The notes under the pieces are model-generated. The model saw only the letters and a list, made by a program, of their open reading frames with translations, was not told where the DNA came from and made no database searches. Positions 13,031 to 38,142 of a DNA stretch of 64,000 bases are shown piece after piece; within the stretch, counting starts at the first letter, position 1; the number at the start of each line of letters is the position of its first letter. Position numbers and translations under genes: made by a program. Origin of the DNA: a virus (Duplodnaviria; Caudoviricetes). The DNA is taken from the IMG/VR virus record IMGVR_UViG_3300027971_000051, positions 2,971-66,970 of that record; one strand, written 5' to 3'.

Positions 13031-13049
13031 TATTATTCTCCATAAATTA

Positions 13050-13218
13050 ATGACAGGTTATTCTGTTACGAGGAAACCTGTCGAAACCCTAGTCAGCGTT
13101 TAGGCTGCCAATGCGAAACGTGAGTCGTTTGCGTTTACTTTTTTTGCTTGATTTACGGTCATCGCCTACCGTGCTGTCCACTCTGGTACTCTTTGCCCTG
13201 TCGAAACTATGCACCCCC
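13050..13218 (-). ncRNA. ssrA: two-piece tmRNA, coding piece (tag ANDSRFALAA* at 13132-13100)
   Basis: 5' GGGGGTGCATAGTTTCGAC, pk1-like ACGGT/ACCGT stem, resume codon GCA, tag ending ALAA-TAA, 3' hairpin. Confidence 0.92.
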
Positions 13219-13230
13219 ATCAAAAATAAA

Positions 13231-13383
13231 TTATATAATTGTATTTTCTGCAACAACATATACTTTCCATTTCGGATGTTTTTTAGAAAGACTTTCTGCT
13301 TTAACAAGCAAATGTTCTTTACTCTTACTTACATCTTTTACGAAAGTTTTGTCGCCAGTTTTTACTACAATTTTATATTTCAT
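13231..13383 (-). CDS. 50-aa basic protein inside the tmRNA intervening segment
   Basis: open frame MKYKIVVKTGDKTFVKDVSKSKEHLLVKAESLSKKHPKWKVYVVAENTII* fills the spacer; no clear RBS. Confidence 0.6.
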   Translation of the reverse strand: MKYKIVVKTGDKTFVKDVSKSKEHLLVKAESLSKKHPKWKVYVVAENTII

Positions 13384-13393
13384 AATTTACTTT

Positions 13394-13457
13394 TGGTGGA
13401 GGTGGGGGGATTCGCACCCCCGTCCAGAACCTGTTTCTCTTTGCTTCATACAGCAAT
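13394..13457 (-). ncRNA. ssrA: two-piece tmRNA, acceptor piece
   Basis: GACGGGGGTGCGAATCCCCCCACCTCCACCA; CACCTCC pairs with GGGGGTG giving the G3.U Ala determinant; GTTCTG/CAGGGC and TGCTGT/ACAGCA helix-2 pairings; 5' end approximate. Confidence 0.92.
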
Positions 13458-13458
13458 A

Positions 13459-13596
13459 TCAATCGTAAGGTGGCCAACCAGTGTCCGCCTTACTATCTTC
13501 TTCAAAATTATTCCAATCGTAGGTTGCAAGTTTGTAAATCCAAAATGCATGTAGTCCTACAACAAGAATTAATAAAATTATATCACTATTTATCAT
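13459..13596 (-). CDS. small membrane protein (45 aa)
   Basis: MINSDIILLILVVGLHAFWIYKLATYDWNNFEEDSKADTGWPPYD*, read manually; single TM segment. Confidence 0.55.
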   Translation of the reverse strand: MINSDIILLILVVGLHAFWIYKLATYDWNNFEEDSKADTGWPPYD

Positions 13597-36556: not shown

Positions 36557-36648
36557 TGGCGGAAGACGGAGGAGTCGAACCCCATCCCATTTCTGAGAAC
36601 CTAGTTTTCAAGGCTAGTCGGCGGACCATCCCACCTGCATCATCTTCC
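36557..36648 (-). tRNA. tRNA-Ser (TGA), non-canonical 8/4-type fold
   Basis: GGAAGATG/CGTCTTCC acceptor, 4-bp T stem, CTTGAAA loop, long variable arm. Confidence 0.8.
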
Positions 36649-37226: not shown

Positions 37227-37301
37227 TGGTGGTGACAGTTGGATACGAGCCAACGACCTCCTGCGTATGAAGCAGATGCACTACCGCTGTGCTATGTCAC
37301 C
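37227..37301 (-). tRNA. elongator tRNA-Met (CAT)
   Basis: TCTGC-TTCATAC-GCAGG; paired 1:72. Confidence 0.88.
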
Positions 37302-37307
37302 ATTTAT

Positions 37308-37381
37308 TGGCAGAGGGTACAAGGATCGAACTTGTGCTAACAGAGTCAAAGTCTGGTGTGCTACCGCTACACTAACCCCCA
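37308..37381 (-). tRNA. tRNA-Gln (TTG)
   Basis: CAGA-CTTTGAC-TCTG; GCCA end; first tRNA of the array. Confidence 0.93.
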
Positions 37382-37401
37382 ACATAAAAAATATGGATGC
37401 A

Positions 37402-37416
37402 AATTGTTAAAGAACG
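37402..37416 (-). promoter_or_regulatory. boxA antitermination element at the head of the tRNA array
   Basis: CGTTCTTTAACAATT closely matches rrn boxA (TGCTCTTTAACAATT). Confidence 0.7.
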
Positions 37417-37440
37417 TTTGTGTTATATTCGATGATATAC

Positions 37441-37479
37441 ACAAAGAAAAACCCCCTAGAGTTTTCAGTCTCTAGGGGG
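37441..37479 (-). terminator. intrinsic terminator of the putative attenuator
   Basis: CCCCCTAGAG-ACTGAAAA-CTCTAGGGGG followed by TTTTTCTTTGT. Confidence 0.9.
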
Positions 37480-37531
37480 CTTGTCTTTGTATTCTCTTTG
37501 GACTTATGGTCCTCAGGTATAACAAGCCCCC
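37475..37531 (-). promoter_or_regulatory. antiterminator helix competing with the terminator
   Basis: GGGGGCTTGT (37531-37522) is perfectly complementary to ACAAGCCCCC (37484-37475), which overlaps the terminator 5' arm. Confidence 0.8.
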
Positions 37532-37629
37532 ATCACTGGTGCGTGGCAATCGGATTTCTCAAAGCGAGAAATACTCTGCCACGTAATTGGCATATAATTT
37601 CTTGCTGAGAGTTTCGAAATTAAATTCAT
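37513..37629 (-). CDS. putative attenuator leader peptide containing all 20 amino acids
   Basis: MNLISKLSARNYMPITWQSISRFEKSDCHAPVMGACYT*; ATG is 1 nt after the upstream stop; last codons overlap the antiterminator strand. Confidence 0.75.
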   Translation of the reverse strand: MNLISKLSARNYMPITWQSISRFEKSDCHAPVMGACYT

Positions 37630-37630
37630 T

Positions 37631-37915
37631 TTAGAGTACCGTTTCTTTCGTATAAATGTTAGACCATTTCTGGAGTTTTTCTTTTTTCTTTCGTGATGCG
37701 TTATCTACTTCATCAATATTAATAATACCTGTTTCAATCATCAATTGAATCATGCAAAATAAATCACCAACTTCTTCTGTCAATCGTTCACGATTAGATG
37801 CGCCATTATGTTGTGCATGTAATCCAAATCGAAAAACCTTACTGATTGCCTGTGTCACTTCTGCACATTCTTCCTGTGCAATCAATAAAATTTCTTTCTC
37901 ATTCGCATTAATCAT
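37631..37915 (-). CDS. MazG-like NTP pyrophosphohydrolase
   Basis: QEECAEVTQAISK..RFG..LTEEVGDL motif. Confidence 0.8.
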   Translation of the reverse strand: MINANEKEILLIAQEECAEVTQAISKVFRFGLHAQHNGASNRERLTEEVGDLFCMIQLMIETGIINIDEVDNASRKKKEKLQKWSNIYTKETVL

Positions 37916-37944
37916 TATCCAAACCTTTTCTCAATTCATAAAAT

Positions 37945-38142
37945 GCTCTGCGAACCTCGGCGGTAATTATAGAACATCAAGATATGACGCTATCATACCC
38001 ATCACACGTTCCTTCCACCCGCTTCCCGACAGATTCCGTTCTCGCATTGCCAGCGGCCTTTCGGTTCAAAGACTACCACCCGTAGTTGTCACGCTACTTC
38101 TCATCCTGTGGGTCACAGTATCTGGTGACTAGCCAGAACGTT
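37945..38142 (-). ncRNA. candidate structured ncRNA C (about 200 nt)
   Basis: GC-rich intergenic segment with TCTGG/CCAGA, GTAG/CTAC and CC-GAAA-GG hairpins; no credible minus-strand ORF. Confidence 0.55.

Follow-up and report, generated by a model that had tools for sequence, protein, structure and literature searches.

A candidate ribosome-mediated attenuator between a MazG-like gene and the tRNA array of an uncultured phage

Described attenuators and the phage locus

In the leaders of amino-acid operons (trp, his, leu, thr and pheA), the position of the ribosome picks either a terminator or an antiterminator. Ribosome-mediated attenuation that answers general translation stress is described for bmrB-bmrCD in Bacillus subtilis: in the part of the source available to us, bmrB is a small ORF that contains mutually alternative stem-loops, one of them an intrinsic terminator, its translation is required for induction, and rare codons are reported to affect the attenuation decision (PMC4191407). 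In E. coli, a regulatory upstream ORF (uORF) that senses ribosome stalling precedes topAI-yjhQ (PMC12121999, available part). According to the available parts of three further sources, the tRNA arrays of phages are now regarded as a means of countering defences that cleave tRNAs (PMC10264068, PMC11464382, PMC11555353). In the literature searched, which was available in part, we found no account of how phage tRNA arrays are switched on and none of an element such as the one described here.

The window, i.e. the whole stretch of 64,000 nucleotides that was analysed, belongs to an uncultured virus record of 66,970 bp that is estimated to be 41% complete. The element lies at the junction of what would be an early protein-coding unit, consisting of a MazG-like gene and a small ORF, and the tRNA array (Table 1), and all genes around it are on the minus strand. 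The product of the MazG-like gene matched Pfam MazG PF03819 with 26.4 bits (cut-off 22) and PHROG 4856 with E = 1.1e-23. With blastn, the region had no counterpart among 50,697 cultured-phage records, and the relatives of the element are uncultured contigs only.

Like the trp/his-type systems, the locus has a short leader ORF, which we take to be translated, an intrinsic terminator and an antiterminator sharing the 5' arm of the terminator; moreover, by geometry and folding, a ribosome at the leader stop would mask the antiterminator strand. Unlike in those systems, no residue is enriched and there are no runs of regulatory codons, the 38 codons specifying 20 residues; the leader is coupled to the preceding gene and lacks a start region of its own; no 1:2 anti-antiterminator was found, and a lack of translation would give read-through and not termination; and the genes downstream are tRNA genes, with a promoter past the terminator in most relatives. 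The element resembles bmrB-bmrCD, as far as the available part of that source describes it (PMC4191407), in having a small ORF with alternative stem-loops and an intrinsic terminator, in having impaired translation in general, and not one amino acid, as the proposed signal, and in its rare codons, since 8 of the 38 codons in the window leader have a share of 13% or less in their family. The same part presents bmrB-bmrCD as bacterial, antibiotic-responsive, controlling a transporter and having its terminator inside the ORF (PMC4191407), whereas the element described here is in a phage, ahead of tRNA genes, and is a candidate known from its sequence. The topAI-yjhQ uORF, compared by its description only and in the available part of the source (PMC12121999), is similar in that the signal is the translation status of a short ORF.

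Table 1. Features in and around the element, in window coordinates
Feature	Position	Strand	Basis or remark
Structured RNA, about 200 nt	37935-38140	-	between ORF 38495-38145 and the MazG-like gene
MazG-like nucleoside triphosphate pyrophosphohydrolase gene, 94 aa	37631..37915	-	stop (TAA, 37633-37631) coupled to small ORF start
Small ORF, 38 codons and stop, candidate leader peptide	37513..37629	-	conserved frame, coupled start, in-frame indels; ATG at 37629, TGA at 37515-37513
Internal hairpin GUGGCA..AUUUCUC/GAGAAAU..UGCCAC	37543..37582	-	folding
Antiterminator 5' strand GGGGGCUUGU (region 2)	37522..37531	-	spans codons 33-36 of the small ORF
Stop UGA inside invariant ACCUGAGGACC, then small GGAC/GUCC hairpin	37500..37515	-	conservation
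Antiterminator 3' strand ACAAGCCCCC (region 3)	37475..37484	-	8-nt overlap with terminator 5' arm
Intrinsic terminator, stem AAGCCCCCUAGAG/CUCUAGGGGGUUU, 8-nt loop, U tract	37442..37482	-	extendable to 37490-37440
rrn-type boxA with spacer	37400..37416	-	14/17 positions as in E. coli rrn boxA-spacer
tRNA-Gln(UUG), first gene of the tRNA array	37308..37381	-	ARAGORN, Rfam
tRNA-Ser(UGA), likely	36561-36648	-	missed by ARAGORN; sub-threshold tRNA-Sec model match
Permuted two-piece tmRNA, betaproteobacterial type	13043-13490	-	tag ANDSRFALAA

By ARAGORN, the window has 24 tRNAs and one permuted tmRNA. The tmRNA scored 124.6 bits with the Rfam model RF04321 and 90.4 bits with RF01850, and is also carried by the complete relative G003; being of the betaproteobacterial type and encoded by the phage, it hints at a betaproteobacterial host. 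The likely tRNA-Ser(UGA) is based in the window on the tRNA-Sec model match only (32.7 bits), and relatives have a tRNA-Ser(tga) at the matching position.

The structured RNA upstream of the MazG-like gene has compensatory changes in 15 of 53 predicted pairs among 16 relatives, and no Rfam family was matched at E up to 10. It had the highest contig depth of the examined stretch in two lake metatranscriptome runs. Its 17-nt core is present in more than 119 viral contigs, some of more than 300 kb, and its locus is surrounded by tRNA genes in 18 loci examined; in one relative (L017) a copy lies inside the tRNA array, and in five compared by position (L158, L161, L170, L201 and L220) it lies between tRNA genes on the same strand. 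Judging from these sequences, it probably represents a stable RNA gene, as yet unclassified, that belongs to the tRNA arrays of phages. That such arrays may contain large RNAs is already known from GOLLD, according to the available part of the source (PMC12286853).

Conservation of the small ORF

The sequence-only reading of this stretch had proposed an attenuator that gates the tRNA array and is a candidate general sensor of tRNA depletion, with a leader peptide of all 20 amino acids and a leader ORF beginning 1 nt past the MazG-like stop. This ORF is present, and its peptide, MNLISKLSARNYMPITWQSISRFEKSDCHAPVMGACYT, contains all 20 amino acids; the codons include TTA and CTC, TCN and AGT, and AGA and CGC. 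The added claim of a codon for every tRNA of the array except Ile2 is slightly generous because CTC is not a standard wobble partner of the array tRNA-Leu(UAG).

Relatives were sought via the MazG protein in viral contigs, and the best 80 of 598 were examined. In the 16 closest of these 80 (at least 72% identity), two of which end just past the start of the small ORF, the element is present between MazG and the tRNA array; the remaining 64 have a different sequence at that place. More relatives were obtained with a nucleotide-pattern scan and with peptide-pattern scans of viral and metagenome contigs. Altogether, 27 distinct versions of the small ORF, each of 37-42 codons, were found in uncultured lake phages, and all 27 keep the frame, the MazG-adjacent start and the antiterminator and terminator strands. 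The alignment comprises 29 of the 33 distinct element sequences, and the four omitted (L011, L099, L132 and L139) are identical or very close to included rows.

The small ORF begins at the MazG-like stop, as TAAAATG, TAATG or an overlapping ATGA, throughout the 33 distinct sequences except for one with a 6-nt gap. The five indels within the small ORF of the aligned relatives are of 3, 3, 6, 6 and 3 nt, and indels in the spacer after the stop are of varied lengths and not limited to multiples of three; in L146, one extra T two bases ahead of the stop shifts the stop 9 nt downstream. Based on the start coupling and the in-frame indels, we conclude that the small ORF probably behaves like a translated frame.

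A translated frame at this place could be a small protein gene that ends the MazG operon and is followed by an ordinary terminator, which would insulate the tRNA promoter and the array, the complement to the terminator having no switching role. We regard this as rather unlikely, though by no means negligible. By default, a unit has a terminator behind its final gene; this and the invariance of 11 to 13 positions in the peptide favour such a gene, and the invariance, being compatible with a function of the peptide itself, counts against an attenuator. By contrast, the peptide matched no family in Pfam and PHROGs, and the pattern of substitutions is not that expected from this explanation. In 10 pairs, the pairwise synonymous difference was 0.17-0.40 in the small ORF vs 0.35-0.77 in MazG, i.e. 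the synonymous sites are about twice as conserved as those of MazG. The dN/dS of the small ORF was 0.24-0.70; that of MazG was 0.10-0.21 in eight pairs and 0.45 in one, while the tenth pair was synonymously saturated and gave no ratio. In 8 of the 9 pairs having a ratio, dN/dS was higher in the small ORF than in MazG, which likewise argues against an ordinary protein gene.

The invariant residues point in the same direction. Only 3 of the 36 invariant-residue columns of MazG keep one codon vs 3 of 9 in the small ORF, i.e. GGG, GCT and ACC, which sit at the antiterminator strand and just ahead of the stop; the region 2 codons GGG and GCT are invariant in 27 of 27 sequences. In the long ORFs of the phage, only 4% of Gly is encoded by GGG and 10% of Thr by ACC, and the invariance of these rare codons exactly in the complementary strand argues further against an ordinary gene and terminator. 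Because of the low synonymous difference, the raised dN/dS and the invariant rare codons, the constraint on the small ORF lies largely at the level of the RNA (or DNA), in addition to the open frame.

Expression data for the region consist of assembled contigs (24 runs), and four metatranscriptome runs were examined. Contigs of the runs X1, X2 and X4 cover parts of the small ORF and of the MazG-like gene. None of the contigs listed spans the terminator; contigs cannot show transcript ends, and assemblies break at inverted repeats. One contig of run X1 joins 37294 to 37958, i.e. the structured RNA to the tRNA-Met region, with 24 other letters between them, which implies a relative in which MazG-like gene, small ORF and terminator are all missing.

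Antiterminator, terminator and the leader of the tRNA array

The complementarity that the sequence-only reading had described was confirmed: within the last codons of the small ORF, GGGGGCTTGT is perfectly complementary to region 3, which overlaps the 5' arm of the terminator (stem 37482-37449, 13 bp, 7 of them G-C). Of 20,000 shuffles of the upstream 143 nt, 7 produced a perfect complement that was at least 10 nt long and extended over at least 5 nt of the terminator arm, and the folding energy of the antiterminator (-24.0 kcal/mol) is matched to that of the terminator core (-22.4 kcal/mol). Both the improbability by chance and the matched energy argue against a complement without a switching role. 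Moreover, the 196-nt stretch had a folding z of -7.09, and none of 200 shuffles folded as well.

The terminator was found in all 29 aligned relatives. In the 29 sequences, the antiterminator is paired in 99.6% of cells, the variants being one C-to-U change that keeps a G-U pair and the L016 type, which is short of two end pairs. No covariation was found in the antiterminator in these sequences because both strands are invariant; thus, the covarying antiterminator/terminator helices that the sequence-only reading had proposed as a check were not seen for the antiterminator, and its pairing is deduced from complementarity and conservation only. This lack of covariation counts against an attenuator and in favour of an ordinary gene and terminator.

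Predicted folds are compatible with a switch. The nascent RNA up to region 3 folds as the antiterminator in the window, and regions 2 and 3 pair in 29 of 29 sequences, while the full-length RNA folds as the terminator in 28 of 29. The exception is L016, which has a weak terminator (-11.6 kcal/mol) and whose full-length fold retains the antiterminator. When the footprint of a ribosome at the stop is masked, the terminator forms, as far as folding and geometry only are considered; the stop is 3 to 6 nt past region 2 in 28 of 29 sequences and about 9 nt further in L146. A conserved anti-antiterminator (1:2) was not found, the default nascent fold being the antiterminator in 29 of 29 sequences, and the weak local partner in the minimum-energy fold of the window is not conserved in the L016 type. 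Thus, an untranslated element would simply read through. The lack of a conserved anti-antiterminator, together with the lack of runs of regulatory codons, counts against an attenuator.

The internal hairpin, which the sequence-only reading had suggested as a pause site, is present in the window but is conserved only in part: the share of paired cells is 87.4% for its outer helix and 82.8% for its inner helix, with two pairs changed on both sides. Its UGGCA may pair instead with UGCCA at 37592-37588, and this alternative helix is paired in 100% of cells. The GGAC/GUCC hairpin after the stop is paired in 77.6% of cells.

The blocks ACCUGAGGACC and AAUACAAAGACAAGCCCCCUAG, which lie between and around the two antiterminator strands, are non-coding and invariant. 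This invariance, and the dominance of constraint at the RNA level, would suit a switch that is not operated by a ribosome, i.e. one in which an RNA-binding protein, a small molecule or a tRNA acts at ACCUGAGGACC and the hairpin region, the ORF being incidental or serving against Rho. The conserved frame and the coupled start point instead to translation, and the loop between the antiterminator strands is variable in length and sequence. In addition, an Rfam search of the region at E up to 1 gave only sub-threshold His_leader matches (RF00514: 28.5 bits vs a gathering cut-off of 49, E = 0.34), so that no family reached threshold; the match comes from the hairpin, since the opposite strand gave a match of 27.5 bits. 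We consider a switch of this kind improbable.

As the sequence-only reading had stated, boxA and the first tRNA gene directly follow the terminator. The boxA sequence is CGTTCTTTAACAATTTG, the comparison being with the E. coli rrn boxA-spacer (PMC2724277 Table 1); it is conserved in relatives, and the window has an exact copy of the boxA core only here on the minus strand. In 26 of 32 distinct downstream variants, a promoter of the form TTGACA-N17-TATACT/TAAGAT lies between the terminator and the tRNAs, and the order in these 26 is sigma-70 promoter, small boxB-like hairpin and boxA, as in the leader of an rrn operon (boxB, boxA). Unlike in an rrn leader, boxA here precedes a phage tRNA array and not an rRNA operon, and in the window the promoter and the boxB-like hairpin upstream of boxA are absent.

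In the six promoter-less variants, including the window, only 16 or 26 nt separate boxA from the terminator, and all six keep intact tRNA genes. Two different junctions indicate that the cassette was lost in two independent deletions. Between the terminator and tRNA-Gln, no other sigma-70-like site matching at least 10 of 12 positions was found in the window, and for the window block from tRNA-Gln to tRNA-Ser no promoter of its own was found. In the promoter-less variants, the first tRNA block would therefore depend on read-through. In the relatives with a downstream promoter, i.e. most of them, read-through would only add to tRNA transcription.

A tRNA promoter downstream of the terminator, which the sequence-only reading had named as evidence against gating, is thus present in most variants and absent from the window. 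The strong promoter past the terminator in the 26 variants counts against an attenuator; together with the boxB-like hairpin and boxA, it is what an ordinary terminator insulating a separately transcribed array would have downstream. The six variants that do without this promoter and nevertheless retain intact tRNA genes argue against such insulation. Finally, ahead of the other tRNA blocks, at 27.5 to 35 kb, there is no comparable terminator.

In total, we conclude that the sequence-level observation is right and that, as judged from the sequences compared, the architecture of an attenuator is real and conserved.

The promoter-bearing cassette and similar promoters were also noted elsewhere. 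The cassette of about 68-90 nt, which has the promoter and the boxB-like hairpin and leads into boxA, is a presence/absence polymorphism (window 37416-37449; L002, L009, L016, L093 and others). The promoter-less junction ATCATCGAATATAAC was tried as a repeated motif and rejected, with 4 matches at up to 3 mismatches vs 3.65 expected in the window. TTGACA-N(16 or 17)-TATACT promoters occur seven times in the window vs 0.08 expected, all on the minus strand (24185, 27683, 28921, 36426, 44535, 45920 and 55691). The one at 36426-36398 is inside the tRNA array and is followed by the boxA-like TTCTTTAAAAA before tRNA-Glu.

Amino-acid content of the leader and proposed working

The sequence-only reading went further than an attenuator responding to translation in general. 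The leader would sample all 20 amino acids, i.e. hold a codon for every amino acid or phage tRNA, and the loss of any one tRNA would stall the ribosome and turn the array on. Completeness is indeed rare in peptides of this length (37-42 aa): among the window ORFs of 30-45 aa, 1 of 284 has all 20 residues (the small ORF itself), as do 60 of 28,955 stop-free 38-aa segments (0.2%). Rarity alone is not compelling because there are about 284 short ORFs to choose from.

In the relatives, completeness is kept in 16 of the 27 distinct peptides; the other 11 are short of Phe, Val or Tyr (Phe is lost in nine, Val in four and Tyr in one), so that the conserved completeness anticipated by the sequence-only reading did not hold. 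Coverage of both Arg codon families is lost as well in the L016 type, which has no AGR codon in the alignment. The losses of Phe are replacements by S, L, I or T at a single codon, which sits in a hairpin loop, where the RNA is most free to vary. Completeness is retained in the divergent L016, L093 and L116 types, in which the places of Tyr, Val, Ile, Cys and Gly differ, and this keeps the all-20 idea alive. Against it stand, in addition to the incomplete peptides, the single codons per residue without runs, the Val and Gly codons of the window, which lie in or beside the antiterminator strand, and the downstream promoter in most relatives. We consider a sampler of this kind improbable.

The content of such a sampler would be expected to track the tRNA repertoire of the phage, with anticodon nucleases or starvation being sensed and the Phe codon let go together with tRNA-Phe. 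In 23 rows, the Phe codon and tRNA-Phe agree in 20 (both present in 12, neither in 8); two have the codon only and one the tRNA only. The exceptions are L014, with tRNA-Phe and no Phe codon, and L004 and L121, with the codon and no tRNA-Phe in view; moreover, L127 has a leader without Val and an array with tRNA-Val. These mismatches speak against tracking. The relative G003 (the record of L011), which is complete (150,107 bp, terminal repeats) and has 24 tRNAs for 19 amino acids, fits it in that tRNA-Phe is missing and the leader has no codon for Phe. tRNA-Phe in relatives was called by ARAGORN; a DNA search in five relatives missed the tRNA-Phe of L016 and was too insensitive.

On the tree, there is one independent contrast between Phe codon and tRNA-Phe on supported branches and there are four on the best tree, and a sign test cannot reach significance with only one to four; moreover, leader and array are linked. 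From these comparisons, the loss of the Phe codon tends to accompany arrays without tRNA-Phe, the independent events being few, and we deem it doubtful that the leader follows the repertoire. Altogether, the all-20 feature is not reliably kept, and a specific all-20 sensor is possible, the evidence giving it little weight. Thus, the frame, the antiterminator and the folding of the proposed all-20 attenuator stood, while the completeness and, in most relatives, the promoter-less array did not.

With the all-20 sampler set apart, we tentatively favour, at somewhat less than even confidence, a ribosome-mediated attenuator: transcription would terminate when the small ORF is translated promptly, and lagging ribosomes would give read-through into the tRNA array. 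From the features, their conservation and the folding energies, we infer both that the small ORF is translated and each step of the switch. Ribosomes coming from the MazG-like gene would be handed on to the small ORF, the last codons of which would form the 5' strand of the antiterminator helix. A ribosome that keeps pace with RNA polymerase would reach the UGA and cover region 2, and with region 2 covered, the terminator would form and the transcript would end. If ribosomes lag, are stalled or are missing, region 2 would pair with the 5' arm of the terminator once this is made, and with the antiterminator formed, polymerase would continue over boxA into the tRNA genes. In this way, the element would report the general state of translation and not each of the 20 amino acids. 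By analogy, its most likely working would be that of a translation-coupled attenuator of the general stress-sensing kind represented by bmrB-bmrCD, as described in the available part of the source (PMC4191407).

This is a small, conserved element. Should the attenuator work in the way proposed, it would be one that is coupled to the gene ahead of it and not located in a 5' leader, and through it poor translation would, in a feedback loop, increase the supply of the phage's own tRNAs.
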